Of a DNA stretch of 64,000 nt, positions 35,025-62,560 are shown piece after piece; the first letter of the stretch is position 1, and each line of letters starts with the position of its first letter. The stretch is from an uncultured Actinomycetota bacterium (GTDB taxonomy: Bacteria > Actinomycetota > Actinomycetes > JAFAQI01). Where the stretch lies: the NCBI GenBank assembly GCA_963770565.1, contig CAVYQE010000002.1, positions 416,001-480,000 on the forward strand. The letters run 5' to 3'. A program made the translations under genes and the position numbers. The notes under the pieces were generated by a model. The model did no database searches and was not told where the DNA came from. It saw only the letters and a program-made list of their open reading frames with translations.

Positions 35025-35097
35025 GCCCTCGTAGCTCAGGGGATAGAGCAACCGCCTCCTAAGCGGTAGGTCACAGGTTCAAATCCTGTCGGGGGCA
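35025..35097 (+). tRNA. tRNA-Arg (anticodon CCT), CCA not encoded; casposon target
   Basis: GCCCTCGTAGCTCAGGGGATAGAGCAACCGCCTCCTAAGCGGTAGGTCACAGGTTCAAATCCTGTCGGGGGCA cloverleaf. Confidence 0.96.
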
Positions 35098-35109
35098 CTT
35101 CGTGCCGGT
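35095..35109 (+). repeat. Left 15-bp target-site duplication
   Basis: GCACTTCGTGCCGGT, identical to 54936-54950; includes the last 3 nt of the tRNA. Confidence 0.95.
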
Positions 35110-35167
35110 GGGAAGGGATGGGAAGGGCCAAAAGAAGGGCCACCCAAACGAACAACAGCCCCCGAAC
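35110..35167 (+). repeat. Left terminal inverted repeat (58 bp)
   Basis: GGGAAGGGATGGGAAGGGCCAAAAGAAGGGCCACCCAAACGAACAACAGCCCCCGAAC, exact reverse complement of 54878-54935. Confidence 0.96.
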
Positions 35168-35354
35168 ACCAGCGCCGGCAAAGGAAAAGCCAGCCACCGC
35201 CACAGCAACGACGCCACAACAGCAGCTCAGCCCACGCGTCCGAACGCGTACGACGTGCAGGCACTCGCGTTCGGGTTCTCGGCAACGGATTCGGCAGCGA
35301 GATCAGGACCGAGCGGGAGGTGCGATGACCTGCGCGAGCACGACCCGCTCATTG

Positions 35355-36530
35355 CTACATGAATTCGACAGCCGCGATTACGTCTCGGGCGGCGAACCTC
35401 CGCCCATACGCCCGGCCGGTCATCTCGGTAAGAACACCTATTTCTACGAGCCGGTCGATCACGCTCTTCGCGGTTGGTGCAGACACCCCGTATTGAGTTG
35501 AGATGAACGAGGCAGTGAGCACCGGCCAGTCGATCAGATCGGCGGCAACTCGGACGATCACACCGCTCCAGTGCCGCTCGTTCAATTGGTCTCGCACGCC
35601 TGCAAGCCATTCGATAAGGGACTGCGCGGACCGAACAAGACTCTCAGACTGTTCGCAGAGAGCTTGGCAGAAGAAGGTGACCCAAGGGTTCCAGTCCCCG
35701 GACTGACTAACCGCGAGAAGGTGCCCTTGGTACTCGTCACGACGCTTCAATAGCCAAGGCGAGATGGTGATCGCTGGCTCTGTCAGTACACCGTGCATGA
35801 GTAGCTCAAGAACAACAAGCAGCCGGCCGATACGCCCGTTGCCGTCCCCAAAGGGGTGCAGCGCCTCGAATTGGTAGTGCGCCATCGCACATCGAAGAGG
35901 AGGGGGTAGGGGGAGGTCTCGGTACAGCCAGTGCTGCCACTGGTCGAGACCGGACCGCAGACGGTCGTCTGGCGGAGGGGGGATGTAGCGCGCGTCATAG
36001 ACCGTGCAACCGCGCGGACCTATCAGCACCTGGTGCTCTCGCACCTTGCCAGGATCTCGGGGCGCCGTTCGTGACTCCCTTGCGAGAATCGCTTGCAGGT
36101 CCTCCAGGAGCCCGATTGTGATCGGTCGCCCCTCACGCATCCACGCGAAGGCTTGGTAGGCCATGCGCTCATACGCCCGAATCTCTGCAACTTCCGGCGA
36201 GGATGGCCGCGCTTGCGGAAGTCGCGCTTCGAGGACGTCGGCCAGTGCGCCATAGGTACCCTCAAGGGCCGAAGTGTCGACAGCTTCGCGCGCCAACGCG
36301 GGCGCTATGAGGATCTGAGGATTGGGTAGTGGCGTGCATGCCTGACGCAGGCCGCTGATCGCGCCCGCGGCCTGCGATACGGCGTTCCAGGTCTCGTTGC
36401 TGAGATCGACCTCGGTCGGAAGGGGATCTGGCAGGAAGGCGAAGTACGAGTATTCACGCAGGTACTCGTCGGTGCCCTGAATTGGTACCAGTTGTCCGAT
36501 TGGACTCTTCCCAAGAGCGTCGAGGTCCAT
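35355..36530 (-). CDS. Fic/DOC family protein with C-terminal wHTH
   Basis: HYQFEALHPFGDGNGRIGR canonical Fic motif; SALEG (inhibitory-like); C-terminal 'YGVSAPTAKSVIDRLVEIGVL'. Confidence 0.92.
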   Translation of the reverse strand: MDLDALGKSPIGQLVPIQGTDEYLREYSYFAFLPDPLPTEVDLSNETWNAVSQAAGAISGLRQACTPLPNPQILIAPALAREAVDTSALEGTYGALADVLEARLPQARPSSPEVAEIRAYERMAYQAFAWMREGRPITIGLLEDLQAILARESRTAPRDPGKVREHQVLIGPRGCTVYDARYIPPPPDDRLRSGLDQWQHWLYRDLPLPPPLRCAMAHYQFEALHPFGDGNGRIGRLLVVLELLMHGVLTEPAITISPWLLKRRDEYQGHLLAVSQSGDWNPWVTFFCQALCEQSESLVRSAQSLIEWLAGVRDQLNERHWSGVIVRVAADLIDWPVLTASFISTQYGVSAPTAKSVIDRLVEIGVLTEMTGRAYGRRFAARDVIAAVEFM

Positions 36531-36554
36531 GATCGAAAGAGTAACGCCCAAAGT

Positions 36555-36639
36555 CCTAACATCTCTGCACAAGATGTTAGGGACCCCCTTCCAATTCCAC
36601 CGGTGGAATTTAGGGGGAGCGGCCTAACCCTTAACATCT
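36555..36639. promoter_or_regulatory. Palindrome cluster upstream of fic
   Basis: CCTAACATCT-N7-AGATGTTAGG, perfect AATTCCACCGGTGGAATT, third TAACATCT copy. Confidence 0.5.
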
Positions 36640-36915
36640 GCCCCTTGCCTGTGCCCCGAATACGCCTTACGGCAGGGTGGCGCCGCGTGGCTACGCCTGC
36701 GGTCGGCGCGGCTCGTCCCGCTTGCCGTAGCCCGCTCAGCCGAGCGCACCGTCGTTGTCGAAGTACGCTGAGCAGCGCACCGCGGCCCCCTGTTTCAGCT
36801 GATCCAGACGACCACGCCAACAGCAACGAAACAGGCGACGAACACGCTGCTCCATCCGAGTGATCGAACGCGTGTGTGATTGCCAAGGGGTCAACCCCCG
36901 CTATACCTTGTAATC

Positions 36916-36965
36916 ACTGCTCCCCGCCGTCCGGACTTCGGTCCGCACTGGCGGGGCTTTATTTT
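36916..36965 (+). ncRNA. Candidate small structured RNA convergent with the NYN gene
   Basis: TTGCCA-N18-TACCTT promoter-like sequence, then CCCCGCC/GGCGGGG stem with CGGAC-TTCG-GTCCG hairpin and TTTATTTT tract. Confidence 0.35.
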
Positions 36966-37561
36966 GCGTAGCGAGTGCTGTCTTTCACCTTCATGTACGT
37001 GGGCATTGTGATCCAGATGCATGGGGCGCGCCGATTGCCCGTCGCTGCGATACACCGCTTGTAGTGGTTCGGGCCGTCCCAGCCGGCTGTCATCGGCCAG
37101 GGAAACGCGCGGCCGTGCAGGTCGAAGGCTGCATCGAGTGGCGGTTTCAGGTCTGTGTCGGTAGTGAAGATCACTCCAATGTCGTACTCGTCGTTGATCG
37201 CCATCATCACGAAATCGACCGCGAGCTGTACGTCTACGCTCTTCTCGCGTGGCGCGCCACCGTCGTCGTAGTGCAGCGGCTTGAGGATGACCTCGGTGCG
37301 GGTCGGATCTGCCCTTCGCAGCGCGGCCGTGTGCTTGCGCACCGCACCGTAGCCCTTGGGGTCCTGTTCGTTGCTTGGGAGTCCGCGGTAGATACGGACC
37401 TGCTTCAACTTCGCGTCGGGGATGCGGCTCACGATGTGTTCGGCCAGCGGGATGGGTCGTATCTGACCGCATTGGGACGGTGAGTCTTCAACATGAAACG
37501 ACTCGCGAGCGCCCTTATAGACGTTCTGCCAGTCAAGGAATACGACTACGCGCTTTGACAC
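36959..37561 (-). CDS. NYN-domain (PIN-like, LabA/DUF88) putative ribonuclease
   Basis: VFLDWQNV, EKSVDVQLAVD, FTTDTDLKP acidic motifs. Confidence 0.88.
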   Translation of the reverse strand: MSKRVVVFLDWQNVYKGARESFHVEDSPSQCGQIRPIPLAEHIVSRIPDAKLKQVRIYRGLPSNEQDPKGYGAVRKHTAALRRADPTRTEVILKPLHYDDGGAPREKSVDVQLAVDFVMMAINDEYDIGVIFTTDTDLKPPLDAAFDLHGRAFPWPMTAGWDGPNHYKRCIAATGNRRAPCIWITMPTYMKVKDSTRYAK

Positions 37562-37790
37562 ACCAAGATCATCGCACTAACCGATTGGGGTGTGTGGTCA
37601 TCCACTGCGCCTCCGGCGGCAAGGTCCAGACCACCGGCGGCGCCCCGCCAGACGTTATGGCATCGGATCGCCAATTGCGCTGACAGACATAGTCATGGGC
37701 GGTAAACAGGCACCGTCACGCACCGCTACCGAAAGGACGCGCCATAGCAAAGGTCGCCCCGTTTTGTCACGTCACACATCACCGGTTTGT

Positions 37791-39383
37791 TTATGGTTGT
37801 CGCAGTTTGACAGCGGTGAGCTTGGCAAGTGCCGCCCAGTGCGATGGGTGTGGCCGGGAGTGACCGGCTCGTATGCGGCTCGCGGAGCCCTTGCTGAGAC
37901 CGGTAGCGGCGACTATTTCAGCGAGTTTCACGCTCGCGAGTCCTGCATGGATTTCCGGCCATGTTGCGGGGTCGAACGCTCCGTCGCCGCCACCGTGCTC
38001 CCACGCCTTCTGCGCTCGTTTGCTTGCCGCGATCGCTCGCCCTCGCACGCTCCGCACGTGCTCGGAGTGGGCTGGATCGTCGGCCCGGCAGGACGGGCAC
38101 CGCACGTGGCGGGGGTTGGACACAGGCGCTCCGCATCCCGGGCAGGCGTAGAGCTGGGCTGCAGGCGACGGCCGCGAACGACGCACATGAACCTGAGCTC
38201 CTTTCCTTGCTCGGCCGGCCTTGTGGGCGGACCGGCTCAACACCGTAGGCACCTGAAGCGGGTCGGGAGCGTCGGCGCCGAGGCGACGCGCGATCTCCTC
38301 GGCGATGGGACTGCACACAGCACGTAGGGCGGGGAGAAGCGCCTTGGCGTAGTCGTGTGTCAGGGGTGCCAGAAGACGTATCTCACCGTCGGGTTGTTCG
38401 GCGAAGTCGGCCTTCCGGAACCGTCGGTCGGTACTGAGCGTCCAGACGGTTTCTTCGACGATCGCGCGGAGCGGCTCCATCAGGTCGAGCGCGAACGCGG
38501 GCCGGTTCGTCCGGTCGGCGTGGGCGAGGCCCATGGCTGGGTCGAGCCCGAGCGCGAGGGAGGCGATGGTGGCTTCGATCTCGGCGAGCCGGTATCCGTA
38601 GTTGAGCAGGGAGCAGGCGGGGGTGGCAGCATGCCGGTTGCTAGGTGCCTCATTGAGCGGGCTGGTGCGGGCGCCAAAGGCGGTCCAGTGCCCCGGGATG
38701 CGGGCCTTGTCCTTGGGGAGGAAGCCGAGGCGTAGCTCGTCGGCCCAGGCGGTCCAGTAATGCTCGGCAGCGTGCATCTCGATCACCATGAGCGCGGCTT
38801 GATCGGTCGCTGTGTCGAGGCTTGCGCCGAGTTCGTCGATGGCGGCGGCGCGGTCCTCGCGGTTGATCAAGTCACGGGTGATCCGTGCCTGGTCGCCAAG
38901 CCGCCGGTGGAGAAGTGTCCGGGTGATTTGTAGCCCGGTGTCGGTGTATGCGGCGAGGGCTTGGGCGCGTCGAAGTGCGCCGTGCCCGTAAAGCTGGGGC
39001 GCGCCAATCAGCAGGGGGTTGGCGGTCGGTCCGGCGACGATGAGTGCGGTGCCGAGATTGGCGCACCAGCCAGCCGCGTCGGTGGTCACAGTCCCGTGGC
39101 CGAGGATCAGGACCCGACGCACACCCCCGGCGGCGGCTTGGGCGCGGGTGATCCAACGGGTGCGTCGGTATTCGCCGATCCCGTCGATGACCTCCAGTGC
39201 GCCTTGTTGGACGCGAACCATGACGCCGTATCCGTCTCCGATCATGACCTCGCCGATCGTGTCGTCGGTGAAAGTGCGATGGGTGTTCTCGCGTCCGTCC
39301 TCGACGTCGTCGGCGGTGATGGCCCGCGGGTCAGGCGATCTCGGCGCTGTTGGTTGTTGGTGGGTAGCGTTTCGGGTTGCCAT
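37791..39383 (-). CDS. cas1: Casposase: stand-alone Cas1 with C-terminal Zn finger and XRE-like HTH
   Basis: IEMHAAEHYW (E), LLNYGY, LGLDPAMGLAH (H), FALDLMEPLR (D/E); CPGC...CPSC; LAEIVAATGLSKGSASRIRAG; no cas2 or CRISPR array nearby. Confidence 0.93.
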   Translation of the reverse strand: MATRNATHQQPTAPRSPDPRAITADDVEDGRENTHRTFTDDTIGEVMIGDGYGVMVRVQQGALEVIDGIGEYRRTRWITRAQAAAGGVRRVLILGHGTVTTDAAGWCANLGTALIVAGPTANPLLIGAPQLYGHGALRRAQALAAYTDTGLQITRTLLHRRLGDQARITRDLINREDRAAAIDELGASLDTATDQAALMVIEMHAAEHYWTAWADELRLGFLPKDKARIPGHWTAFGARTSPLNEAPSNRHAATPACSLLNYGYRLAEIEATIASLALGLDPAMGLAHADRTNRPAFALDLMEPLRAIVEETVWTLSTDRRFRKADFAEQPDGEIRLLAPLTHDYAKALLPALRAVCSPIAEEIARRLGADAPDPLQVPTVLSRSAHKAGRARKGAQVHVRRSRPSPAAQLYACPGCGAPVSNPRHVRCPSCRADDPAHSEHVRSVRGRAIAASKRAQKAWEHGGGDGAFDPATWPEIHAGLASVKLAEIVAATGLSKGSASRIRAGHSRPHPSHWAALAKLTAVKLRQP

Positions 39384-39448
39384 GGGAGGTCCTTTCTCCT
39401 GTGGTCAGCCCCGGCGGTGTTAGCCCACCGTCGGGGCGCTTGTCGTTG

Positions 39449-40324
39449 CTAGTGGGTGCGAGCTCCGTTCTCGCGGTGCCGTTGGTTTGTCTTGGTGGCT
39501 TCGATGGCTGCCTGCATGGTGAGAGCTCCGACGATCGCGCCGACCATCGCCGTGATGTCCGAGGGTTCAATGGCGAGGGCGTTCACGGCTGCGGCTGTCA
39601 GGTCCCGAGCCTCGTCGAGTTCGGTGCGCGACGCTTTTCGCACCCAAGCAGCCGAGACGGCGGTACCGGTCTCCATAGGTCCGGCGGTCCCGTCGATCGG
39701 CGTCGCTGTGAGTGCCGCGAGGAATGACTCCGCGAGTTCCGCTTCGGTGGCATTCAGCTCTTCGTCGTCACCGGTGAGCGTTAGATGCACCTGCGCCAGA
39801 AGCGGCTTGAGCATGGGGGCAAGCTTTTCCGCTGCAGCCCGCAACGCGAAGTCGTCAGGGACGACCTCGCCCCGGACTTGTTTGAGGGCCGCTGCTGCAA
39901 GCACAGCGACGGTGTCGGGGTCGTCATCGAGGCCAAAGGGGAGTGGTTGCTCGTCGCGGCGACGGTGTGCCCGGTCCGGACCCCGGCCGGTGGATCCGGT
40001 TGCGGCGTAGTCCGTCTCGTTGATAACCGCTTCGAGCGCCGACCGCAGTCCCTCCTCACGCACCGCTGCGCCTCGCAGCCACGCGAGCACAGCGACCCGG
40101 TGGAGCTGGCGGACTTCAGTCGCTGCACGGCGGAGCGCGACCACGAGCTCGAACGTCCCCTTCGGGTACGCCGACGTCGTGACCCCGCGTCCCCGACGGG
40201 TGACCACCGAGGAGGGAATGAGCTTCTGCTCGCGCAGGTGCTGGACCTGACTGGCGGTCGCCGGCCAGCCAGCGGCGGTCGTCTGGGCGGCAAGGTCGAG
40301 GTCCGCGCGGCTGGGAAGTCCCAC
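39449..40324 (-). CDS. Hypothetical protein, possible N-terminal HTH
   Basis: 291-aa ORF co-directional with cas1; 'ASQVQHLREQKLIP...RGRGV.SAYP' resembles a MerR-like HTH-wing. Confidence 0.55.
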   Translation of the reverse strand: MGLPSRADLDLAAQTTAAGWPATASQVQHLREQKLIPSSVVTRRGRGVTTSAYPKGTFELVVALRRAATEVRQLHRVAVLAWLRGAAVREEGLRSALEAVINETDYAATGSTGRGPDRAHRRRDEQPLPFGLDDDPDTVAVLAAAALKQVRGEVVPDDFALRAAAEKLAPMLKPLLAQVHLTLTGDDEELNATEAELAESFLAALTATPIDGTAGPMETGTAVSAAWVRKASRTELDEARDLTAAAVNALAIEPSDITAMVGAIVGALTMQAAIEATKTNQRHRENGARTH

Positions 40325-40337
40325 GCCACCACTTTAC

Positions 40338-40423
40338 GCGGCACCACGATGCGACCTACTAGCGGCACCACGAAAAGGGCGGCTGCATCGGCGCTGATCG
40401 GAAGCGGCACCATGAAAGGGGCG
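40338..40423 (+). repeat. Three direct repeats in the divergent control region
   Basis: GCGGCACCA(C/T)GA at 40338, 40362, 40404; copies 2 and 3 share 19 of 21 bp. Confidence 0.7.
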
Positions 40424-40448
40424 CCGAAGGCTTTCGCGCTGTATCCCG

Positions 40449-40673
40449 ATGGGCCATCGTGGGTTGGTGACGACGAGCACTGTGGTGGTGGCACTGCCGC
40501 CCGATTTGGTGGCCGCGGTGGACGCGGAGGCCCGTCGTCGGTTGCTGCGTCGTGGTGAGGTCTTGGCCGCCTTCCTCCGGGACGCCTGGCCGAGTTGGGT
40601 GCAGACCCAGCTTGAACGCGACCTCGCCAGAACACCGAACGCCAATCCAGCCGTCGACGAGACGGCGGACTGA
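40449..40673 (+). CDS. Ribbon-helix-helix (CopG-like) DNA-binding protein
   Basis: TVVVALPPDLVAAVDAEARRRLLRRGEVL beta-alpha-alpha pattern; first gene of the polB operon. Confidence 0.6.
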   Translation: MGHRGLVTTSTVVVALPPDLVAAVDAEARRRLLRRGEVLAAFLRDAWPSWVQTQLERDLARTPNANPAVDETAD

Positions 40674-40674
40674 G

Positions 40675-41193
40675 ATGCCGCGCCGAAAAACCCCCGGACC
40701 GTCGCCGCTGCGTGGTCGTACCACCTCGGCCGAGCGGGCAGCCAGGACGGCGCGGGAGCAAGCGAAGGCGCAGGCGGCAGGCTTCGGCTCAGCGTATGAG
40801 CAACGACTGGCCCGGGGTCGTGAGCGCGGATTGTCGCGATCGGTGGCGGGTGGGAAGCCGACGCCGCGTGAGGTGCCGCTGTCGAGTCAGCACCTGACCT
40901 TCTACTCAGTCCCGGTGCGCATCGGGTCGGGCACGGTGCTGGTGGATATCGAGACCCGGAACTTGCGTGGGGGGAGTGTGCTCGGCGCCTACCTGGCCGA
41001 CATCGGAGCGTTGCTGCGCGGGCGGCTGACCGCAGCGGAGTTCGAGGCACGGTGGCAGCGGCGGACGGTGGCCGGGCATCGGTTGGAGTCGCGGGCGGCG
41101 TTCGTGGTCGAGGCGATGCGCTCACGTGGCCCGCAGCCGGGTGAGCCGCGGTACCGCCGGGTGGCGGCCGGCGCCGGGGGTGGTTCCCGGTGA
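40675..41193 (+). CDS. Basic hypothetical protein of the polB operon
   Basis: Starts 1 nt after the RHH stop, GTGA overlap with the next gene; 'SAYEQRLARGRERGLSRS'. Confidence 0.6.
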   Translation: MPRRKTPGPSPLRGRTTSAERAARTAREQAKAQAAGFGSAYEQRLARGRERGLSRSVAGGKPTPREVPLSSQHLTFYSVPVRIGSGTVLVDIETRNLRGGSVLGAYLADIGALLRGRLTAAEFEARWQRRTVAGHRLESRAAFVVEAMRSRGPQPGEPRYRRVAAGAGGGSR

Positions 41194-41522
41194 TCGGCCG
41201 GTGCTCGCGTTGCGGCGTAATCGGTCCGATCGATCGGGATCACCCGTCGGGCCGGGACCACGACATTCCGTTGCACCCGGACTGGACGCTCCCGTTGTGC
41301 CGGGCGTGCTGTCACAAGCTGACGGGCCGGCTAGACCGCGGCGCGGGTGTGGAGGGCGGCGCACCGACAGTGCGACTGGTCGCGAGCCGGGTCGCTTCCC
41401 GGCTTGGCTGCTACGCGCTGACCGATGAACCGCTGGTGCTGGACCCGCAAGTGATCGCGACGTTCGCTCGTCTGGTCGCGGACGTGGCCCGGCGGGTGCC
41501 TGCGGACCTGGCGTGGGACTAG
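41190..41522 (+). CDS. HNH-like zinc-binding endonuclease
   Basis: CSRCG...DRDHPSG...TLPLCRACCHK (CxxC...DH...LCxxC-H). Confidence 0.65.
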   Translation: MIGRCSRCGVIGPIDRDHPSGRDHDIPLHPDWTLPLCRACCHKLTGRLDRGAGVEGGAPTVRLVASRVASRLGCYALTDEPLVLDPQVIATFARLVADVARRVPADLAWD

Positions 41523-41524
41523 CG

Positions 41525-44443
41525 GTGAGCGAGCTGTACCGGTTGCGGGTGCGCGGGCATGTCGATGCGTGCCCGAGACCGGCCGTCCGCGGGGAGCCGT
41601 GGGGGTGGGTGCGGGACACGCCGTGGCTGTTGCTGCATGTCCTCGCCGACGGGCGGGACCGTCCGCTGCTCGCGACCGCGCGCGACCTGCACGCGATCGT
41701 GTCTGAGAGCGGGGCGGGACGCGGGGTCGTTTGGTGTGCACGGCCGAGGACATCTACGCCACTGCGGACCGTCTCGACGGGCTGCGCGAGGCACTGCGGG
41801 GTGTGCTCCCGGATGTGCCTGCGGGCTTCGACGTCGAGGATCTGCGGGTCGAACCGTTGGCCCGGGTCGGGAAGCTGATCCGTGACTGTTCCTACCGGAA
41901 CCGGTGGCCGGTGATCGGCTGGGATCTGCCCTGGTTGTTCGGTCGGTGGGCTGAGCACGCCGGAAACGCCCAGGCCCGCGGCCGGGGTGGGTTCAGCCTG
42001 GTCCTGGCCGGGCTCGGCCGGTTCACTGACGGGACGTTCGTGGACGGCGTGGGAGGACAGCCCGGCGCTGCAGGTCATCCCCCGTCCGGGCGGGGACACC
42101 GGCGGGTTCTATCGGTGGGCGAACCCGAAGACCGACCGTTACCGCGGCAAGCACCCGGCCCGGTTCGTTGACCTGCGGGTCCTCGCGGGTGCGCTCGGCG
42201 GCGGGCAGGTTGAGACCCCGGCCGACGCCGCCCGCCTGTTCGACCTGACCTGGCCGGAGCCGTCCGACGACCCGGTGGCGCGGCTCCGCGCGGAAGCGGC
42301 CGCCTTAGGTGAGTTGGCGACCGCGTTGTTCCGTGCGATCGTCGCGGCGGCGCCTGGGTTGGACCCGGCCGCAGTCCAAAGCTTCGGCACCGATCGCCAC
42401 CCACCTGCTCGCAGAAGCGGGTGTCAGGCCACCGTTGGGCAAGACCCGCCGGCTGCCCCCGAATGATCTGGGCGATGCGGCGTCGGCGACGTTCGGTGGC
42501 CGGTTCGACGCTGCACTGGTTGGTGTCGCGCTCCCCGCGGTCCTGGTCGATATCAGCAAGACTTACGCGTCGCTGTTCGCGCTGCTCGGTCTGGACGGCG
42601 TGTACGGGTGTCGGGAGTTCCGCAGCGAACCCCGCGACCCGACCCTGATCGCGTCGCTGCTCACCGACCCGGCCGCGATCTGGCAAGCGGAGACCTGGGC
42701 CGAGCTGGGGTTGACGTTCGTCACGTTGCATCCGACCGGCCAACCATTGCCGTGCTCGGTGGAGCTTGCTCCGGGCCGGTGGCGGAGCATGGTCGCGCCG
42801 CTCGACCTGTCCGGCGGGAGTGCGACCTACCACTGGGCTGAGGTGCTCGCCGCGGTCGTGGCGGGCGCGGATCCCGCGAGCATTCAGATCGACCGGGTGT
42901 TCTCGATCCGGCCGGTCGGCACCCAACCCGACCTGACCCCGGTCCGGCTGGTCACCGGCCGCACCGTCGACCTCACCAGTGGCGAGCTCGGTGCGGCGCT
43001 GGTCACCGAAGCCACCCGCAGCGACCTCCCGCGGTGGCAGCGCAACCTGGCGCGGGCCACCGCGCAAGCCATCAGCTACGGGGTGCTGCTGCGGCACGAC
43101 CCGATCCCACGATCCGGCGAGACCAGCGCGGTCGGACCGGGCGGGCATCGGGTCACCGTCCGAGCCGCCAGGCCGGAGCGACCGGGACCGTTCACGTTCC
43201 TTCCCGCCGGTGCCGCGGTGTGCGCCGCCACCCGGCTGATCATCGCCTTGCTCACCGCCGAGCTACGAGCAGCCGGCAGCGCGGCGATGGCGATCCACGC
43301 CGACAGCGTCACGATCCCCTGCACCCCGACCGGCGAGAGTTTCCCGGTCGACGGCGCATCCGACGGACGCCTCCGCACCCTCACCCCCGGCCAGCTCGAC
43401 CAGCTGCTCGACGGGTTCGCGCCGCTCGGGATCACCTTCCGCACCGAGGTCGCCAACCCCGACGGTCGCACCCACGGGCTCGTGGTCGGGGTCAACAAGA
43501 CCGTCTTCGCCCAGCACCGCGCCGACCGGTCATGGCAGGTCGTGCGCAGCAGCGACACCGGGCTCGGGGGGAGCCTCGCCGACCCGTCCGACACCCCGGG
43601 CACCCGGACCCCGGACGGTCGGTGGCAATGGAGCGCCACCCTCGAAACCACGATGTTCCCCCGGGACGAGCCGGCTCCGCTGCCCGGATGGGTGGACCGG
43701 CCGGTGGTGCGCCGCTACACCGCCAACACCCCCGCCGTGCTGGCGCAGCTGAGGGACGAGCTCGCCGACCCGACCGTGATGCCGTTCGCCCGGTACCTGC
43801 GCGCCGAACCGCTGGTCGGCACCGGCGGGCCGGTCGCGCTCGGCCCCTGGCCCGACCCGGCCCGCTGGGCCGAGGCCGGCTGGCGGTTGCACGGCAAACC
43901 GGTCACCGACCCAGCCGGGTCCTGCCGGGCCCACCCGGCAGGGCTCGCCTACACCCTGACTCGGACGGTCAGCGACTACTTCACGGCGTGGGCCACACCG
44001 AACGATCCGAGCACCACCGGACCGGAGCGCGGCCTTCGCGACCCGGTCCCGATCCGATCCGCTCTTGGGCTGACCGTGGTCGTCGGCCGGGACTCCGCCG
44101 ACCTGCCGGACACCGAGCCCGACCCGGCGATGCCCAACCCCACCAGCCGCCTGGTGTACGGGCACACCGCCCAAGCCGAACTCCGGAACCGCATCCGCGA
44201 CATCGGGCCGCGCCGATTCAGTCAACAGTCCGGGATCGCGTGGTCGACCGTGTCGCAGTACGTCAACGACCGGCCCGGCAGCCCGCAGCTCACTCAACGG
44301 ATCGCGATCGCGCTCGCCCGTTACACCCCCACGCCACGCGCGACCCGCCTCGTGCCGTGCGGGCACTGCAACAAGCCACCAGCCGCCGAAGGTGGTGCTC
44401 GGACCGGTGCCGGATGGCCGCGACCCGAGCCGGTGCCGCGTGA
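41525..44443 (+). pseudogene. Divergent family B DNA polymerase with C-terminal HTH and Zn finger; about 4 frameshifts as assembled
   Basis: Stitching ORFs 41513/41731/41987/42309/43034 gives IGWDLPWLFGRW (ExoII-like), FVDLRVLA, ATFGGRFD, VDISKTYAS (motif A), RATAQAISYG (motif B), IHADS (motif C), VNKTVF, then HTH and CGHC...WCSDRC. Confidence 0.78.
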
Positions 44444-46677: not shown

Positions 46678-47590
46678 GTGATGACCATGACCGAGCTGTC
46701 TTTGACGACGAGCGACGCGACGCGATTGGCGATGGCGGCGTTCCTGGCCCGCTACCGCGAACCGACCCTCACCGCTTACACGCAAGACCTCGGTCCTACT
46801 CGGCCTGGTGCACCAGCAGTACAACCGGCGAGGTGCTCCATGTCACCCGCGGCCGAGCTTGAGATGTACGTCCGGCAGATGGAGAGCCCGCGGGTACGCC
46901 GCCGCGACGATCGCTCGCCGCTTCGGCACCGTCGCCACCTTCTATAAGTACGCGGTCATCGACGGGCTCATCACGGCCAACCCGGCGGACGCCGTCACGC
47001 GCCCGAAGGATGGCATGGGAGGGGCAGAGGCGCACCGTGCTGCACCCGCTGGAGTTCGCGGCACTGCTGTCCGCTGCCCGCACGTCCAGCCCGAACGACC
47101 ACGCGCTTGTCTGTCTGCTCGGCATGCTTGGTCTGCGCGTCTCCGAAGCGTGCAACGCCGACATCACCGACATCCGGTACGAGTCCGGCTACGAGCTGCT
47201 GCACGTCATCGGCAAGGGCGCCAAGCCGGCCGACATCCCGCTGCCGATCCCGGTTCTGAGAGCGGTGCGGGAGGCGATCGATGGACGCGACGAGCGGACC
47301 GATCCTGCAGCACCCGGACCGGGCGGCGGATGGACCGGCCGGCGCCAGCAGGGCGCTCGTCCGGGTGGCCCGCGCCGCAGGCGATCAGCCACCAGATAAG
47401 CCCGCACGGCCTGCGGCGGACCTTCTGCACCACTGGCCTTGTCGCTGGCATCGCGATCAGAGACATGCAGTACGCGATGCGGCACGCGGACCCGCGTACG
47501 ACCCTGCGGTACGACATGGCCAAGGCCAACCTCGACCGCCACGCGGCGCATGCCGTCGCCGCCTACCTGGCCGGCATGAGCACCGGCTGA
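46678..47590 (+). pseudogene. Tyrosine recombinase/integrase (XerC/D-like), multiple frameshifts
   Basis: GLRVSEA (R), GKG (K), HGLRRT (H-x-x-R), HADPRTTLRY (H...Y) spread over several frames. Confidence 0.88.
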
Positions 47591-47660
47591 GCCCGGACCT
47601 AGCCGGCGTTCTGTCCGCGCCGCTGGGGAACGATTGACCGGCACGGGGCGTCGTATCACC

Positions 47661-48080
47661 ATGAAGACCATGCGAGTGAGGGTTGGATGGGCCGCGTCCG
47701 CCACAGCGGCGGCCGCGCTGGTCGCTGGTTGCACTCACGCAGCCGCGCCCGCTTCGAGCCCTGTCGCCGAACCAACCAGCCCTGCGCTCGGCACTGTCGT
47801 TGGTAGTTTCAGAGCGGGAGCCGGGCCGGATGGTGGCTCGGGCGGCCCGCTACCGGGCGTGGTTACGGTCAGGCTGCACACGATTGGCGGGCGCGTCGTC
47901 GCCTCCGCACACGCCGACACGACCGGCAGGTTCCACTTCGCGCTCCGACCCGGTCGCTACGCATCGAGCGCGATCGCGCTCAAGAAGTTGCCGTGTCATG
48001 TTGGGCCCACGCCTCCCCAGCGTGTCAACGTGGTGGCGGGTCACGTCGCGCGAGTCGTCCTGATCTGCCCCGTTGGGTAG
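47661..48080 (+). CDS. Secreted lipoprotein with carboxypeptidase-regulatory/prealbumin-like domain
   Basis: VAGC lipobox; ADTTGRFHFALRPGRY. Confidence 0.6.
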   Translation: MKTMRVRVGWAASATAAAALVAGCTHAAAPASSPVAEPTSPALGTVVGSFRAGAGPDGGSGGPLPGVVTVRLHTIGGRVVASAHADTTGRFHFALRPGRYASSAIALKKLPCHVGPTPPQRVNVVAGHVARVVLICPVG

Positions 48081-48129
48081 GCACGCCGAAGCGCCGATAC
48101 ATAGCACTCGAACTCGCGGTATGGATCGC

Positions 48130-48735
48130 TCAGCCGCGGAGTTCGGTGTAGGGCGATAGATCGATCAGGTCGCCACGGCAGACGCCGACATTCCTCCTTG
48201 CGATCAGGGATGCCGAGGCCCGCGAAGTTTCGACGCGCAGATCGGCCGAGAGGCTAGCGCCACACTCCGCTCCCCGGTCAACGATGAGATAGGCGTAGGC
48301 GGTGCCGCCCGCCGCGACGGCCACGCTTTCGGAATGGAGTGCGCTCGTGGCGCCAGCGACGATCGGCGGGTATGGCCACCTTGTGGATGGGTGAACGCGA
48401 GTCCATGAACGTGGTGCGGAGGTACGTGTCAGGCGCAGGTACGGGTAGCCCTGGAGTGCACAGGCGCGTCGCGAACGGTTGCGGAATCCGAGGACGTACG
48501 CCGATTCGTGATTGTCGACAACGTGCCCAGTGGCATCCATGGTGATCGCGACCACCGCCGGAGCACACCTCGACAGAGGCGTATCGACGAGGCCAACGGG
48601 TGCCGTTGTCCGGGCCGTCGTGGCCCGTGGCGTCGACGTTGGCGGCGTCTGGGTCGGTCCCGACGCCGATCCCGAGCACCCGGTGAGGAGCCACACCGCG
48701 ACGCATGCGGCCGCCACCGACGTGATGCGCATCAT
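48130..48735 (-). CDS. DUF4232-like lipoprotein
   Basis: LTGC lipobox; FRNRSRRACALQGYP. Confidence 0.7.
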   Translation of the reverse strand: MMRITSVAAACVAVWLLTGCSGSASGPTQTPPTSTPRATTARTTAPVGLVDTPLSRCAPAVVAITMDATGHVVDNHESAYVLGFRNRSRRACALQGYPYLRLTRTSAPRSWTRVHPSTRWPYPPIVAGATSALHSESVAVAAGGTAYAYLIVDRGAECGASLSADLRVETSRASASLIARRNVGVCRGDLIDLSPYTELRG

Positions 48736-48798
48736 GACAGTGTGACGTAGTCAAGCCTCTGAAGGTTGGCTCTCACCAATCGGCTTCTGTACCGCGCG

Positions 48799-50151
48799 AT
48801 AGGTGATGCCATAACGGAGCGGGGCCTCCCGCTCCTGTGAGTACCGCAGGAGACTGCGGTTGCTCATAAACCCACATGGTGAGGGAGGCCACCAATGAGT
48901 GACGGTATCGCTAGGAAGAAGCAGTTCGTCGGCGTCGACCTGCATCTGCACCGGTCGGTGATCGTGCGGATCGACAACCGCGGTCGCGAGCTCGAGTGCG
49001 TGCGGATCGACAACTCTGTGTCCGGCCTTGTCGCTGAAGTGGCGAAGGCTGGGCAGGGTGCGCCGGTCGCGATCGAGGCGACATATGGCTGGTACTGGGC
49101 GGTCGACGCGTTGCAGGCGAAGGGTTTCGAGGTGCATCTCGCGCACCCGTACGGGATGAAGCAGATGCGGAAGCGGCGCCGGGTGAAGACTGACCATGCG
49201 GATGCGCTGGAGTTGGCGCGGCTGATGCGGCTTGGTTCACTGCCGGAGGCCTACATCGCCCCGGTCGAGCTTCGGGAGCTGCGGGAGCTGGTCCGCCACC
49301 GCCAGCAGCTGACGAAGGTCGCGACCTGCAACCAAGGGCGGGATCCGCGCCGGGTTGGCGAAGCACGGGATCCGTCTGCCGGTCAGCAAGCTGAACACGG
49401 TTGCTGGGTCGGATCTGCTCGATGAGCTACGGCTTCCGGGCTACTACGGGCAGCGGCTCGCCGCGCAACGCCGGATGATGATGCTCGTCGAAGACGAGCT
49501 GGCTCGGGTGGAGCGCGAGCTGGACCGTCGGTTGAAGACCGACCCGGACTACCGGCGGCTGCAGAGGATCAAAGGGATCGGTCCGATCCTCGCGGCGGTG
49601 TTCGTCGTCGAGATCGGTGATGTGAGCCGGTTCCGCAACGCGGCCGCGATCACCTGCTGGGCCGGGCTGACTCCACGGGTGCATGAGTCCGACCGGCGCC
49701 GACACGACGGCTCGATCAGCAAGGAAGGCTGCGCCCTGGTCCGGTGGGCCGCAGTCGAATCGGTGCAACGCCAATGCGAACCAGTCATCCGAGCCGTCCG
49801 GGACGACATCCTCGCCCGCCGCGGGAAGAGAGCGAAGAACACCGCGAAAGTCGCCGCCGCCAGGCGGATGCTCGAGGTCGTCTACTACACGCTGCGTGAC
49901 GGTGAGGCCCGTTGCCTGACCAAGCCGGTCGCCGCCGCGTGAACACCGTCAAGACTTCGTGCGGGTCGAAGTAGCGGCATGACCCACCCTCGGGTGCGGT
50001 CGACGAAGTGAATGACCCCACGACCCTGGAACCCAGGGACGCTCGCACGGCTTCATGCTGACCACCACGTCGCGAAGGGATGCCTGACAGCAAACTGGCT
50101 GTCGCCGAGCTCTGCCATTTCAAACTGAAGCCGAACCTGACAACCACATAG
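48799..50151 (+). mobile_element. IS110-family element (DEDD recombinase 48895-49942, frameshift near 49330)
   Basis: GVDLH, IEAT, KTDHADA (RuvC DEDD); GIGPI, WAGLTPRVHES; ends inferred from ATAG at 48799-48802 and 50148-50151. Confidence 0.85.
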
Positions 50152-50372
50152 CGACGCCGGCAACACAGTCTGCGTCAACCACGAGACGGCCTCAACACCG
50201 TTCGTCCTCGCGCTCCGCGCTCCGGGCGCTGCGTGTTGACCCCGCCCCGCGATCGACGCCGCCCTTGATCTGCCGACCATCGCCGAAGAACGCTCAAAAC
50301 AAACAGTTGACGGCCCCACTCCGTTCAGGGATGCCGTTCTCGATCGTTCCCGGCCGGCGGACCTGTCGGTGG

Positions 50373-51636
50373 TTACGAGGCGGGTCGCAGGATGGCGAGG
50401 CCGACGGGGCTGGCGTCGCAGTGGCAGCTGGGCGCGAAGGTGCCGATGATAATGAGTCCCTGTCGTGTCCATACGTCGTCGTACAGTCGAGTGAGGTGGC
50501 GGAGTCGCGGTGCGGGGTACCACGTGCGGCTTGCCGGGTCGTAGGCGGCGACGGCGCCTTCGGCGTCAGGGCCGAAGTCTTGACCACCGAAGCCTTCGCC
50601 GCCCTGGATGCCACTGATCACGCGTCCAGTGACGAGGGCGCTGGCCATGTCGCGACGAACGGTGTCATGTGCAGCGTGGTGGTCCTCGTGGTGCCGAGCC
50701 GGATGAGCTGTGGGTCCGGGTCGATGCCAATCCCGCAGAAGGAGCCGAGCGGGCAGTCCTGGCCAGCGATGAGCTGCTGAGGCCCGAAGCTCTGAGCCGT
50801 GTCGACGGTGACCGGGAGTGTCGGCTGGGGCTGTCTTTCCCAGCGGTCGCCGTCGAGGCGGTAGAGGTGCGCGGTCTCATGCCCGCTGGGATCGTTCGCG
50901 GTCAGGAACGCCCAGATGGAGGTGCCCTGCACGTAAGCGGCGGCGGAGCCAGATACGGAAGGCTGGGCAGCCGGGTCCAGGTCGAGCCGTCGACCCGCAT
51001 CGCCTGGCTGTCGTTCATGACAACCGCAAGCTGCGAGTCGGCGACCACGAGTGCGCCTTTGAGAATCTCGGGCGGGTCGAGCATGGTCCACCGGTTCGTG
51101 GCGGGGTTCAGCTCCGCGTCGTGTCCCCAGTCGTCGATGATGATTGCTCGCGAGCCGGTCCACGCTGCCTGCCAGCCGCCGTCGAGACGCAGCTGGGACG
51201 GCGGTGCCGCGAGCCGCCGCCACTGGCCGGTCTGCAGGTCGTAGAGCGCGACGCCGTCCTGACAGGTCTTCGGCCCGTCGGACAGGACGGCCAGAACGCC
51301 GAAGCTGGTCGACAGCACCTGTGAGATGCACTGCGCGATCGACGTCGGAACCGGGGTGACCTTCGACCAACTCCCGTCAGCGATCTGCTGCGCTGACGGT
51401 CCGGTCAGCCGGGCGGCTGGCACGGTCGGCTTCGCTGCGCTGAACGAGCCTGCGATGTCGACCGCGGCGAGCAAGACGAGTGCAACCAAGGCCGCTGACA
51501 GCACGACCGTGACGGACCGACGAGTCCGGCGCTGGCTGGCAGCGCGGTCGAGCATCTCCCGAACCGGCGCCGGCCCAACCGGGAAGCTCGCGCGCCGCTG
51601 GAGCGCATCGCGCAGCACGGCGAGGGAGTCACTCAT
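50373..51636 (-). pseudogene. Membrane-anchored Kelch/beta-propeller-like protein (probable partner of the adjacent ECF sigma), 2 frameshifts
   Basis: MSDSLAV...TM...YDLQTGQWRRLA, AAWTGSRAII, LNPATNRW, AYDPASRTW across three ORFs. Confidence 0.6.
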
Positions 51637-52123
51637 CGCCGACCTCCATCTCATCGCGTGCCTGATCGACCCGAAGCGCGACAAGCGCACGGTGCGCCCG
51701 CGACTTCACCGTCCCAACCGAACACCGCAGCATTCTCGCGATCTCCGCCTCGCTGCAGTCGCAGTAATAACGAAGCACCACCACCGCCCGCTGCTCCGGC
51801 GGAAGCGCGGACAACGCCCGCTCGAGCACCATCGCCGACTCGACCCCGAGCGCTGCATCCGGCGTTGAACGCTCCGGCATCGATAGCGTCGGCACCTCAC
51901 CACGCCACCTGCGCTGCCCGGCCCGCAGCGCGAGCCTGCTCATCACCGTGCGGGTATAGGCGAGCGGGTCGTCCACCGAGGACCACCGGCGGTAGGTCTT
52001 CAACAGCGCAACCTGCGCGAGGTCCTCACCCGCCGCAGGGTCGGGCGCGAGCAGCCGCCCGGTCCGCACCAGCGCGGCCCACGACGACTCCACAAACCGC
52101 GTGAAGTCCTCGTCGTGGCCCAC
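51629..52123 (-). CDS. ECF sigma factor (SigE-like)
   Basis: EDLAQVALLKTYRRW...LPPEQRAVVVLRYY.D.SEAEIA...SVGTVKSR. Confidence 0.9.
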   Translation of the reverse strand: MGHDEDFTRFVESSWAALVRTGRLLAPDPAAGEDLAQVALLKTYRRWSSVDDPLAYTRTVMSRLALRAGQRRWRGEVPTLSMPERSTPDAALGVESAMVLERALSALPPEQRAVVVLRYYCDCSEAEIARMLRCSVGTVKSRAHRALVALRVDQARDEMEVGDE

Positions 52124-52653
52124 ACCTAATAAGAGCACCGATGGCCCGAAGAAGGTTCCCCAAGACACAGTCCTTCTGCAACGGACTGCGGTCACGACCG
52201 ACCGCCGAGTAAGTGCCGCTACCGTCGGGCACCATCCCTGCCGTTCGGATCGGGGCCGCTAGGTGGAAATGAGGTCAGTAGCGCGTTCCAAACCCCGCCG
52301 CAACCTAATCGGCTCGGCCACCGGCATGGACCATACTGCGTCGAACTGTCGGCAAGTCGCGCAATGGGGATCCGCGCCGCCGTCATGTTCACCGCGGTGA
52401 GCTCGTCCACCGGCCATTGCGAGGTCGAACAGCGCGTCGATGGCTTGCCAGGTCACTCCGTCGCCCTGCACCACAAGGCCGTCTCTCGACCCGAAGTCGT
52501 CGTCCGCCTCGAGAATCCGAGCGGCGTTTTAACGCGCGGCATGCGTGGGTCTCGCGCCCGGTCCGTCCACCAAGAGCATCACGCGCGGCAAGCAACGCGT
52601 CCGATGCGTTGCCTTTGCGGAGGTTCTGCAGTCTGAGATAGCGGGACGGCATG

Positions 52654-53346
52654 TCAGCGCCAGTCCGAGCCTGACAGGTTCACACTCGCTGCGCCGTATA
52701 TGTCATCGAAGGTGATCCCACCGAAGTTGATCGCGTTGAGACGCCTCGTGGTGTAGTCGACCGTCACGACCTGTTGCAGTTTCGTATCTCCGAGGTTGTT
52801 CGTCTCAGGGAAATATCCGAAGATCCCGACCTCGCGCAACATTGGATAGTCGCTTTCGTAGGTCTTGATGATCTGGAGCATGTTGTAGACATCTTCCTTC
52901 GCCCCGCCGGTCCGAAGACCCTGCGTCAGGTTGTCCTGGATCAAGAAGGGCACCGACAGGAACCGACCGCTGTACTTCAGGCGGACGATCCGTGGCGAAC
53001 CGGCGTAGATTCGACTTCCCTAGCTTGTTCAAAGGGTGGCTTTGAGCGATGTTGGCGCACTCGGCGATGAGGCTCCAGGTGGCGAAGTCGAGGGCCCGGG
53101 CGATGACGAGGACTTTCCATTAGGGCTGACCGCGTTGCCGATAATGCCGACGACCGCTAGCACTGCCACAACGGTGAGAACAACGGACCATGCGGGATGG
53201 CGCTTTACCCAGGACCGCGAGTCCCCTGGCCAGAAGTTCCAACCTTCCAGTGGCGGGCCCCATGACGGATCGGGGGTCCAGCCGGCCGGTGGCGACCAAC
53301 CAGGCGACGGCGAAGCCGGCCAGTTCGGCGGAGGCGTCCAAGCCAT
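52654..53346 (-). pseudogene. Membrane protein with N-terminal PPPNWP/PW-rich motif, frameshift near 53030
   Basis: MAWTPPPNWPASPSPGWSPPAGWTPDPSWG, TM, continuing in ORF 52654-52953. Confidence 0.55.
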
Positions 53347-53536
53347 GGGGCGGACCATAGACCCTGGCGGGGACGATAGACCCAGGGGAATGATCCGATG
53401 CCGACCACACCCAACTCAGTTGCGCCCGCACACGCACTCCACCGTTTTGGACGCGTGGGGCTAGCGCCTGCCGTAGCTATTCCATGCTGGGTCCCTGCCG
53501 CCGCTGGGGCTCGTCTGCTCGTCGGTGCCAGCTGTT

Positions 53537-54877
53537 TGAATCGCCCTGGGTTGCTTGGAGGCTCCAGACCTTGGAAACGAGGATGGAGTCATGGGGAACG
53601 AAGGCACACCGGGAAGCCGACTACGCGTCGGTACTCACCGGAGGAGAAGGCGCAGGCGGTCCGGTTGGTGCGTCAGCTGCGCAAGGAGCTCGGGCACCGA
53701 GCACGGGACGGTCCAGCGGGTCGCCGAGCAGCTCGGCTCGGGGTGGAGTCGTTGCGGTCTGGGTGAAGCAGGCCGAGATCGATGACGGTCGAGCCGGGCA
53801 CGACGACCGTCGGAGGCGAAGCGGATCAAGGAGCTCGAGCAGGAGAACCGGAGCTGCGGCGGGCGAACGCGATCTCTGAAGTCGGCGTCGGCTTTTTTCG
53901 CGGCGGAGCTCGACCGCCCACAGAGGTGATGGTCGCGTTACATCGACGAGCACCGCGACGAGTTCGGAGTCGAGCCCATCTGCCGCACGTTGCAGGTGGC
54001 TCCGAGCACGTACTACGCGGCGAAGTCCCGGCCGCGTCGTCGGCGCGGGCGGTGCGCGACGCGGTGATGATGCAGGTCCTGATGGTGTTGTGGGTCGCGA
54101 ACCGCAAGGTCTACGGGGCACACAAGCTCTGGAAAGCGGCCCGCGGGCCGGCCATGACATCGGCCGGGATCAGGTCGCCCGACTGATGCGTGAACTGGCC
54201 ATCGAGGGCGTCTCCCGACGCCGCAAGAAGGTGTTCACCACCCGGGCCGATCCCGACGCGATCCGAGCGCCGGATCTCGTCAACCGGAACTTCACCGCCG
54301 ACCGGCCCGACGCGTTGTGGGTCACCGACCTGACCTATGTGCCGACCCGGTCGGGGATGGCGTACGTGTGTTTCATCGTCGACGCGTTCACCCGCCGCAT
54401 CGTTGGCTGGCGGGTCGCGTCGAACATGCGCACCGCGATGGTCCTGGACGCGCTCGAGATGGCCCGCGACGATCCCGCGGCGGGAAACGATTCGTCGGGC
54501 TCGTGACCCATTCCGATGCCGGCGTCGCAATTCACGTCGGTGCGGTTCACGGAGCGACTCGACGAGATCGGCGCACGCCCATCGATCGGCACCGTCGCCG
54601 ATTCGTACGACAACGCGCTGGCTGAGACGACCAACGGGCTCTACAAGACCGAGTGCGTCTACGGACCCGACACCAACGGCTGGGACGACGTCGACGAACT
54701 CGAACTCGCGACGCTGTCATGGGTGCACTGGTTCAACGACGACCGCCTCCACAGCCACTGCAACGACATGCCACCCGCAGAGTTCGAAGACAGCGTTCTA
54801 CGCTGCGCTCGACAGACCGACCAGCGAGGCGGTTGGAATCCAATAACCCGAGCCTCCATCAGACCCAGGGCGATTCA
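53537..54877 (+). mobile_element. IS3-family insertion sequence (orfA/orfB, many indels), 1341 bp
   Basis: TG...CA ends; IRs TGAATCGCCCTGGGT...GGAGGCTC; 3-bp TSD GTT (53534-36, 54878-80); DDE motifs WVTDLTY, HSDAG, DNALAET. Confidence 0.93.
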
Positions 54878-54935
54878 GTTCGGGGGCTGTTGTTCGTTTG
54901 GGTGGCCCTTCTTTTGGCCCTTCCCATCCCTTCCC
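54878..54935 (-). repeat. Right terminal inverted repeat (58 bp)
   Basis: Exact reverse complement of 35110-35167. Confidence 0.96.
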
Positions 54936-54950
54936 GCACTTCGTGCCGGT
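54936..54950 (+). repeat. Right 15-bp target-site duplication
   Basis: GCACTTCGTGCCGGT. Confidence 0.95.
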
Positions 54951-62534: not shown

Positions 62535-62560
62535 GTCCACGTCCACGTCCACGTCCACGT
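62535..62560 (+). repeat. Short tandem repeat (GTCCAC)x4
   Basis: cgtccacgtccacgtccacgtccacgt in the intergenic region. Confidence 0.7.

Follow-up and report, generated by a model that had tools for sequence, protein, structure and literature searches.

A 19.8-kb block in the genome of an uncultured Actinomycetota bacterium is very probably a casposon, partly decayed, at a tRNA-Arg(CCT) gene. The block spans positions 35110-54935 of the window, the whole 64-kb stretch of DNA that we analyzed (contig CAVYQE010000002.1, positions 416,001 to 480,000). All four defining parts of a casposon are present: a solo Cas1, a family-B DNA polymerase gene (polB), terminal inverted repeats (TIRs) and a 15-bp target site duplication (TSD). 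The original prediction, made from the letters alone, had read the block as a bacterial casposon, and these parts, found together at the 3' end of the tRNA gene, bear that reading out.

Ends, target site and relatives of the same design

The inverted repeats match over 58 of 58 nt (35110-35167 and 54878-54935) and have outer termini of the form 5'-GGG...CCC-3', as had been predicted, and they adjoin the same 15-mer, GCACTTCGTGCCGGT, on both sides. In full, the arms extend over 67 nt at 94% identity (35110-35176 and 54869-54935); the right repeat is perfect for 58 nt only because an IS3-family insertion sequence (IS) sits directly inside it, at 53537-54877. The duplicated 15-mer takes in the last 3-4 bases of the tRNA gene, placing the insertion at its 3' end with defined bounds, again as predicted. 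Exact copies of the 15-mer number two in the window. A third in the genome (G000:C1:1427965-1427979) lies within a coding region with no tRNA nearby and was set aside as a chance occurrence.

The direct repeat had been described as exact and 15 bp long. It is exact on both sides, but it really runs for 31 nt (35095-35125 = 54936-54966, 100%), the opening 16 nt of the left repeat being present again past the right copy of the duplication. We rejected a true TSD of 31 bp, since in the sister-species genome G003 the repeat begins exactly 15 nt after the same tRNA base. The 16-mer that starts the left end, GGGAAGGGATGGGAAG, was found three times in the window at ≤3 mismatches compared to 0.42 expected, a count that none of 100 shuffles reached, and these are its only places in the whole 4.43-Mb genome.

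Directly past the right TSD copy lies what appears to be an older related element in tandem, reduced to a stump: its first 16 nt are those of the left repeat, and its remainder is diverged sequence that retains the subterminal motif at 55049-55072. A 16-nt left end and motif in this position are the pattern that insertion at a site regenerated by an older relative would leave. Neither a Cas1 or PolB remnant nor the right end of the older element was found in 54951-76000.

The tRNA and its upstream flank are present in all four same-genus genomes (G001-G004). G003, where the flank is 91% identical, has GCACTTCGCGCGAGC and then GGGAAGGGATGGGAAGGGCCAAAAGAC... at this place. The latter is a related left end (GGGAAGGGATGGGAAGGGCCAAAAGA...) whose distance from the tRNA position, 15 nt, is exactly that seen here, but the content behind it is unrelated; the window's Cas1 and PolB were not found in this genome (550 contigs, 92% complete). 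What follows the tRNA in G001, G002 and G004 (flanks 70-73% identical) is unrelated, and the element was not found in them. A gene that lies 3.6 kb past the tRNA in G004 and 2.1 kb past it in G002 is ~39 kb past it here, 10 kb beyond the window end, and synteny with both genomes resumes near extended coordinate 74190, leaving ~38 kb extra in this genome. GC content is 0.63-0.69 until ~73000 and mostly 0.68-0.72 after; the lower-GC DNA past the tRNA amounts to ~38 kb.

Other elements share this design. The polymerase family (described below) is present in five of 401 genomes of the window's class, its own included, and in two of 301 genomes sampled from the phylum Acidobacteriota. G234, which belongs to the same class but to a different family, has cas1 (-) and polB (+) divergent as in the window, within a 12,002-bp element (G234:C1:281133-293134) that has a 43-nt perfect TIR beginning GGGATAGG and a 14-bp duplication, CCGTCGCGAATCAT; the site is the end of a 275-aa open reading frame (ORF), with no tRNA. 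Its polB consists of two coupled ORFs of 413 and 729 aa with a 4-nt overlap, split near profile position 290. The Acidobacteriota genome G872 contains a 16.4-kb block with 127-nt repeats, the same Cas1 family (4.4e-138) and an intact 1009-aa PolB frame, and, after it, a second block of 5.3 kb with 41-nt repeats, in which neither Cas1 nor PolB was matched. Three copies of the 14-mer GTCAAACGGATCAC, one on each outer side and one in the middle, bound the two G872 blocks, which makes them a tandem array.

The metagenome contig L112 (1-16886) encodes Cas1 and a replication set of PolB, SSB and an AAA_25 helicase, and no ends were found within its 16.9 kb. The cargo around its Cas1 is of a defence type: a type III restriction subunit, an N6/N4 methylase, AIPR and a TIR-domain protein. 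Altogether, Cas1 and PolB occur together in five loci: the window, L112, G234, G872 contig 27 and G872 contig 10, where Cas1 is truncated. PolB without this Cas1 family was seen in G140 and G746 (within the 20 and 16 kb examined), and Cas1 without PolB in L032, an 8.4-kb contig.

These comparisons bear on a different origin for the block, in which it would be a genomic island brought by a tyrosine integrase, with the 31-bp repeat as attL and attR and with Cas1 and PolB as passengers. tRNA 3' ends are classic integrase targets, an integrase remnant lies at 46808-47590, the direct repeat is 31 bp and not 15, and the ~38 kb of lower-GC DNA after the tRNA also fits an island. Yet the extra 16 nt of the repeat are the exact start of the 58-nt inverted repeat, inverted repeats adjoin the 15-mer on both sides, and the repeat takes in only 3-4 tRNA nt. 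The integrase is in two pieces, with the left and right ends ~11.7 and ~7.3 kb away from it, and G234 and G872 have TIRs and a 14-bp duplication with no tRNA in the stretches examined. We therefore consider an integrase island very unlikely.

The solo Cas1 and its family

The prediction of a solo cas1 with E/H/D-E motifs was correct. The casposase gene is an intact ORF of 530 aa in which E202, H288, D300 and E303 are invariant across an alignment of 31 Cas1 family members, and the window protein retains all 37 columns invariant in that alignment. It matches Pfam Cas_Cas1 at 3.7e-35 and TIGR00287 at 1.4e-26, passes the NCBIfam general cas1 model (93.4 bits, cut-off 71.7), and aligns to the Cas1 structure 7cr6 across the H...D..E block. 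The next-best NCBIfam models, type I-G (Cas4-Cas1 fusion) and I-C, are both far under their cut-offs. Toward the C-terminus, a zinc ribbon (C414, C417, C429, C432) is followed by a tail resembling a helix-turn-helix (HTH); three of the four cysteines are invariant in the 31 members, and all four among the 10 sequences of alignment A3.

Besides the query, the family comprises 35 clusters in the protein collection, at 32-62% identity and all 405-575 aa long, and a profile search of that collection returned the same 35 proteins as the single-sequence search. Sources are metagenomic or Acidimicrobiales metagenome-assembled genomes (MAGs), the named ones being Acidimicrobiales MAGs; the genome is of bacterial type and high in GC, and the host is bacterial. 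A single-sequence search of genome contigs found no related locus. Searches with the A3 profile gave mostly ordinary Cas1 loci, many adjoining CRISPR arrays, with one locus of this family in the best 80 genome-contig loci, about four in the best 80 metagenome-contig loci and none among viral contigs.

A FastTree phylogeny of 132 Cas1 rows was built from 34 family members, 96 Cas1 from A3 profile-search loci (genome and metagenome contigs), the genome's own CRISPR Cas1 and a solo Cas1 from G411. Left out were three family proteins <450 aa, the fragments L032, L113, L114 and L133, and comparison rows matched across <200 profile positions. A single branch, 1.6 substitutions per site long and with a local support of 100%, divides the family from the 98 other Cas1. 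One long comparison row with an array, L117, joins the family weakly (support 70) and was flagged as a possible long-branch artefact. The closest comparison Cas1 are mostly frames of 550-650 residues with Cas1 in the C-terminal half, an arrangement that fits the second-best NCBIfam model, the type I-G Cas4-Cas1 fusion. Tails of the 96 comparison proteins are ~60-165 aa with at most one CxxC, and the zinc ribbon with HTH tail is absent from them.

The original prediction had suggested a divergent lineage and named nesting within CRISPR-associated clades as the outcome that would count against a casposase. The divergence is apparent in the separate clade of 35 clusters with its 1.6 stem and in the blindness of Pfam to the polymerases of both the window and L112. 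As to nesting, the family does not fall within any of the sampled Cas1 groups, in a tree whose rows include no reference casposases.

Two Cas1 genes are present in the genome, the window copy and one on contig C1, and the only Cas2 match is at C1:243420-243575. A k-mer test for CRISPR-like arrays was positive for 64 of the 96 comparison Cas1 loci and negative for all 64 kb of the window, the 20 kb beyond it, L112, L032 and 40 kb around the G234 element. The predicted lack of cas2 and of a CRISPR array was thus confirmed, with cas2 confined to contig C1 and no array within the window. On C1 (G000:C1:243420-244695, L209), CRISPR adaptation genes include a Cas1 (313.7 bits to Pfam) beside Cas2 and an array of 11 repeats.

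These results also address whether the window gene could be an adaptation Cas1 left over from a decayed CRISPR-Cas locus and lying between the repeats by chance. Passing the NCBIfam general cas1 model, with I-G and I-C next although far under their cut-offs, would fit such a leftover, as would best matches in the Protein Data Bank (PDB) that are CRISPR Cas1 proteins. Opposed to it are the lack of cas2 on the contig and of an array in the window, the position of the real CRISPR locus on another contig, the separate Cas1 clade with 100% support, a zinc ribbon and HTH tail that none of the 96 comparison proteins has, and the co-occurrence of Cas1 with PolB in five loci. We regard a leftover as slightly less credible even than an integrase island.

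The G411 protein was considered as a casposase reference and rejected, because it adjoins RNA polymerase genes, the pattern of Cas1-solo group 1. In this Methanomicrobiales MAG (G411:C43:77188-77991; L211 10167-11081), the weaker-scoring Cas1 directly follows RNA polymerase subunit genes; Cas1-solo group 1 is described in the 2014 casposon paper (PMC4046053). When 301 genomes from an archaeal phylum were searched with Pfam Cas1, the strongest matches, those listed, were of the CRISPR type.

The polymerase gene, its decay and the cargo

A PolB-like gene had been predicted, and by family profile the 923-aa ORF at 42309-45080 is a divergent family-B polymerase. None of the 91 ORFs ≥100 aa overlapping 35000-57000 matched a Pfam polymerase family. 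The 923-aa ORF has a third-position GC content (GC3) of ~0.9 until ~44300, followed by Arg-rich junk, and aligns with residues 338-997 of a 1021-aa ORF in L112 (29% identity, E 8e-35), which lies near a Cas1 homologue 39% identical to the window Cas1. The L112 polymerase has no Pfam match; a search of 1.84 billion representatives gave 1335 relatives for it at E ≤0.001. A profile built from 40 full-length family members gave 55 PDB matches at E ≤10. The 38 best of these are without exception family-B polymerases (lowest E 2.9e-4), with the alignment falling at motif A (D..S.YP) and the DTD motif (motif C). The best solved relatives are entries of ~773-793 residues, one of them a Pyrococcus abyssi B-family enzyme, plus DNA polymerase alpha; the 575-residue polymerase 1xhx, presumably that of phi29, reached only E 0.57. 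Pfam DNA_pol_B_2 matches seven of the 40 members (best 1.1e-06).

The window copy matches the family hidden Markov model (HMM) at E 2.2e-98 and is frameshifted. Its break near profile position 290 may be natural, because the two halves are separate ORFs in G234 and many database members hold one part, and a two-gene polymerase may be a regular form within the family. Two extra breaks lie near 42005-42031 and near 44381-44387, the latter shifting the terminal zinc ribbon, the second half of which is in another frame that stops near 44441 as the nominal frame continues to 45080. Both key carboxylates are kept (the motif A Asp and the second Asp of DTD), and a near-invariant GG reads GS.

Contigs of sequencing run X1 match the window at low depth and agree with it, with no indel in 41.7-44.4 kb among the pieces listed (depth ~3-4), and run X2 matches small parts only. 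Uncovered parts and short read-contig joints (sides of 20-31 letters) were taken as noise from other organisms. The frameshifts are probably real. The predicted intact ends therefore stand as far as the repeats (58/58) and duplication (15/15) are concerned, but they do not make an intact element, since polB carries frameshifts and no longer has several conserved motif residues; the right end also has an IS3 element inside it.

This raises the possibility that the block is a true casposon but a dead relic, its perfect ends reflecting the recent insertion of an already defective copy. We see this as an even call. Pointing to a relic are the frameshifts and changed motif residues in polB, the similarly split IS3 OrfB, IS110 transposase and integrase, and the finding that no second copy of the ends, Cas1 or the PolB family exists elsewhere in the genome. 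PolB is broken in G140 (three in-frame stops) and G746 (a frame change and two TGA) as well, and the 2016 survey describes tandem casposon copies whose polymerase gene is full of stops (PMC4779613). The opposite conclusion is favored by the whole casposase ORF with every invariant residue kept, the perfect TIRs and duplication, and the retained motif A and second DTD aspartates.

The remaining features are listed in Table 1. Upstream of polB, the ORFs at 40552-41193 and 41190-41522 and the polB start are coupled on the + strand by stop/start overlaps. The Cys-rich ORF at 41190-41522 reads CSRCG...DRDH...RDH...LCRAC, a CxxC...DH...CxxC type of pattern, and G872 has a similar one, CALCG...NH..GRNH...FCGEC, just upstream of polB. 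The HTH that had been predicted was found in the C-termini of Cas1 and PolB. Pfam also matched DUF4232 inside the block and gave no HNH or Cas2 match in the 91 ORFs. The Fic-domain protein matches NCBIfam Fic at 1.7e-36, under the cut-off. The Fic and NYN genes adjoin each other at the left end of the casposon (35355-37561, - strand) and could be a toxin-like or defence module. In the integrase remnant, Phage_integrase profile positions 3-87 fall in ORF 47010-47396 and positions 101-166 in ORF 46808-47587. The IS3 element has an ALIL frameshift pseudoknot at 53890-54004 (RF01497, 87.5 bits), and its rve ORFs are split, again near 54503-54516.

Past the casposon, lower-GC DNA continues for ~19 kb, from 54951 to ~73000 (G000:C2:470951-489000), and contains an IS630-type DDE_3 transposase (55342-56412), a glyoxalase-family ORF and a histidine kinase. 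A 669-aa ORF at 60568-62577 (-) is built of 5-6 diverged repeats of ~160-170 nt that are 63-73% alike.

Table 1. Positions of the features in and around the element (window coordinates unless a genome is given)
Feature	Position	Strand	Evidence or remark
tRNA-Arg(CCT), insertion target	35025-35098	+	ARAGORN; Rfam RF00005 35025-35097, 70.6 bits
TSD, left copy, GCACTTCGTGCCGGT	35095-35109		exact repeat search
Left TIR, begins GGGAAGGG	35110-35167	+	58 nt perfect
Subterminal motif CCCACGCGTCC	35232-35242		also inverted near right end and in downstream stump
Fic-domain protein (cargo), 405 aa	35355-36572	-	Pfam Fic_N 1.3e-13, Fic 1.8e-13
NYN-domain protein (cargo), 200 aa	36959-37561	-	Pfam NYN 1.5e-08
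Casposase cas1	37791-39383	-	intact ORF, 530 aa; Cas1 domain residues 79-338
ORF directly upstream of cas1, no family	39449-40324	-	291 aa
213-aa ORF, no family, first of coupled run into polB	40552-41193	+	
110-aa Cys-rich ORF, HNH-like motif	41190-41522	+	motif read by eye
polB N-terminal (exonuclease-side) part, two frames	41731-42466	+	local HMM (A4) E 1.8e-11, 1.4e-08
polB frame 1	41737-42030		profile positions 73-167
polB frame 2	42005-42427		profile positions 159-309
polB polymerase part and C-terminal HTH	42309-44441	+	profile positions 295-953
polB frame 3	42384-44396		profile positions 295-953
166-aa ORF, no family	44392-44892	+	GC3 0.88
Probable lipoprotein (cargo), signal peptide with Cys	45456-45911	+	read by eye
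Tyrosine integrase remnant, halves in two overlapping frames	46808-47590	+	Pfam Phage_integrase
IS110-family transposase split in two ORFs	48895-49942	+	DEDD_Tnp_IS110 1.3e-19, Transposase_20 3.1e-21
Kelch-motif ORF downstream of ECF (extracytoplasmic function) sigma gene	50902-51690	-	Pfam Kelch_4 1.6e-06
ECF sigma factor (cargo)	51629-52195	-	Pfam Sigma70_r4_2 1.6e-19
Right subterminal motif	53439-53462		24 nt, 96% inverted match to 55049-55072 in downstream stump
IS3-family insertion sequence directly inside right TIR	53537-54877	+	39-nt inverted repeats, GTT 3-bp duplication
Right TIR	54878-54935	-	58 nt perfect (58/58)
TSD, right copy, GCACTTCGTGCCGGT	54936-54950		exact, 15/15
Stump of older related element in tandem	54951-55072	+	first 16 nt = left repeat
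G872 tandem blocks	G872:C27:204001-232000 (L212, L213); local 1646-23442		

Insertion history and comparison with known casposons

Several points weigh against the block being a casposon, or limit what can be claimed for this copy. Similarity of its Cas1 to 7cr6 (5.3e-11) and 7mi4 (2e-10), both CRISPR Cas1, is better than to 6opm (5.9e-06), which we take to be the Methanosarcina mazei casposase, and its clade can count only as a putative member of the casposase clade. An integrase remnant and a tRNA target would also be expected of an integrase-borne island. No empty site with a single 15-mer was present among the same-genus genomes searched; given the unrelated sequence that follows the tRNA in the three genomes lacking the element, none would be expected there. 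The polymerase gene lies in at least three frames and has DTD changed to HAD, the motif B Asn to Gln, and KRY to NKT, which makes self-synthesis by this copy doubtful. The frameshifts themselves rate as probable only, because they come from one assembly of which run X1 may be the source. Finally, the small ORF ahead of polB had been predicted as HNH-like; the motif can be read by eye, but the ORF has no Pfam HNH match at E ≤10 and no homologues in the protein collection, so that it is HNH-like by motif only.

With the casposon reading preferred, we infer from its anatomy, homology and same-design relatives a chemistry, an order of events and a present state. By analogy with studied casposases, the enzyme with its zinc ribbon and HTH tail would bind the GGG...CCC ends and attach their 3'-OH groups to the two target strands at points staggered by 15 bp, at the edge of the tRNA-Arg(CCT) gene, and gap repair would then produce the 15-bp duplication and keep the tRNA whole. 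The insertion would have occurred at the site of an older relative, whose left stump would now lie past the right duplication in the order TSD-E1-TSD-E0. This order matches the G872 array and the Methanosarcina tandem arrays reported in the 2016 survey (PMC4779613). The element presumably once had its own family-B polymerase with an exonuclease part and a small HNH-like ORF ahead of it; here polB is decaying, and an integrase remnant and IS3 and IS110 elements have piled up. This copy is probably no longer self-replicating. Its casposase and ends, judged by sequence, look functional.

A further proposal is that the Cas1-PolB lineage is a separate, unnamed casposon family of Acidimicrobiia and Acidobacteriota, in which the zinc-ribbon/HTH tail was retargeted between site types. 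The sites differ in kind: a tRNA 3' end in the window and G003, that of a 275-aa ORF in G234, and a reused 14-mer in G872. On this view, copies that combine a whole casposase and perfect ends with a decayed polymerase would show casposition to be independent of the element's own PolB. We hold this proposal as tentative and rather doubtful.

The CRISPR adaptation machinery is presumed to descend from casposons. The element offers a bacterial casposase with exactly defined ends, a 15-bp target by a tRNA and relatives with other targets, a set suited to testing site choice by the zinc-ribbon/HTH tail. It leaves the picture of what casposons are unchanged and is not a surprise, and it adds a case of tandem pile-up with polymerase decay, as in the Methanosarcina arrays. 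Biochemistry exists for three archaeal casposases only, according to a 2023 review (PMC9939771).

Bacterial casposons have been known since 2014 (PMC4046053), and our literature search found no paper joining a casposon with tRNA-Arg or with Acidimicrobi. According to the 2014 paper and the 2016 survey (PMC4046053, PMC4779613), family 3 (AceAut-C1, NitAL212-C1, StrAlb-C1 and HenMar-C1) shares with the window element a bacterial host, a solo Cas1 and family-B polymerase between TIRs, a TSD of ~14-15 bp and a small HNH-like gene near polB, which in the window is a motif only. In AceAut-C1 the order is Cas1, zinc-binding domain, HTH (PMC4046053), so that both domains are C-terminal as in the window Cas1, and NitAL212-C1 also carries IS elements and assorted cargo. 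The differences are the site and the sequences. All bacterial casposons are intergenic according to the 2016 survey (PMC4779613), whereas the window element sits at a tRNA gene 3' end; that is a departure from a habit and not from a definition. In addition, the window Cas1 clade has no close named relative, and its PolB is invisible to Pfam.

Family 2 (AciBoo-C1 of Aciduliprofundum boonei; Methanosarcina), as described in the same papers, shares the overlap with a tRNA 3' end that leaves the tRNA whole, a TSD of 14-15 bp, HTH on the C-termini of both Cas1 and PolB, an HNH gene (in the window, again a motif), tandem arrays and decayed polymerase genes (PMC4046053, PMC4779613). Archaeal casposons overlap tRNA genes by 4-7 nt with a median TSD of 15 in the 2014 paper (PMC4046053). 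Unlike family 2, the window element has a bacterial host and an added zinc ribbon on its Cas1, and similarity to 6opm is weak. By published descriptions, then, the element is most like bacterial family 3 in host and Cas1 architecture; its tRNA target and the HTH of its PolB are points of likeness to family 2.

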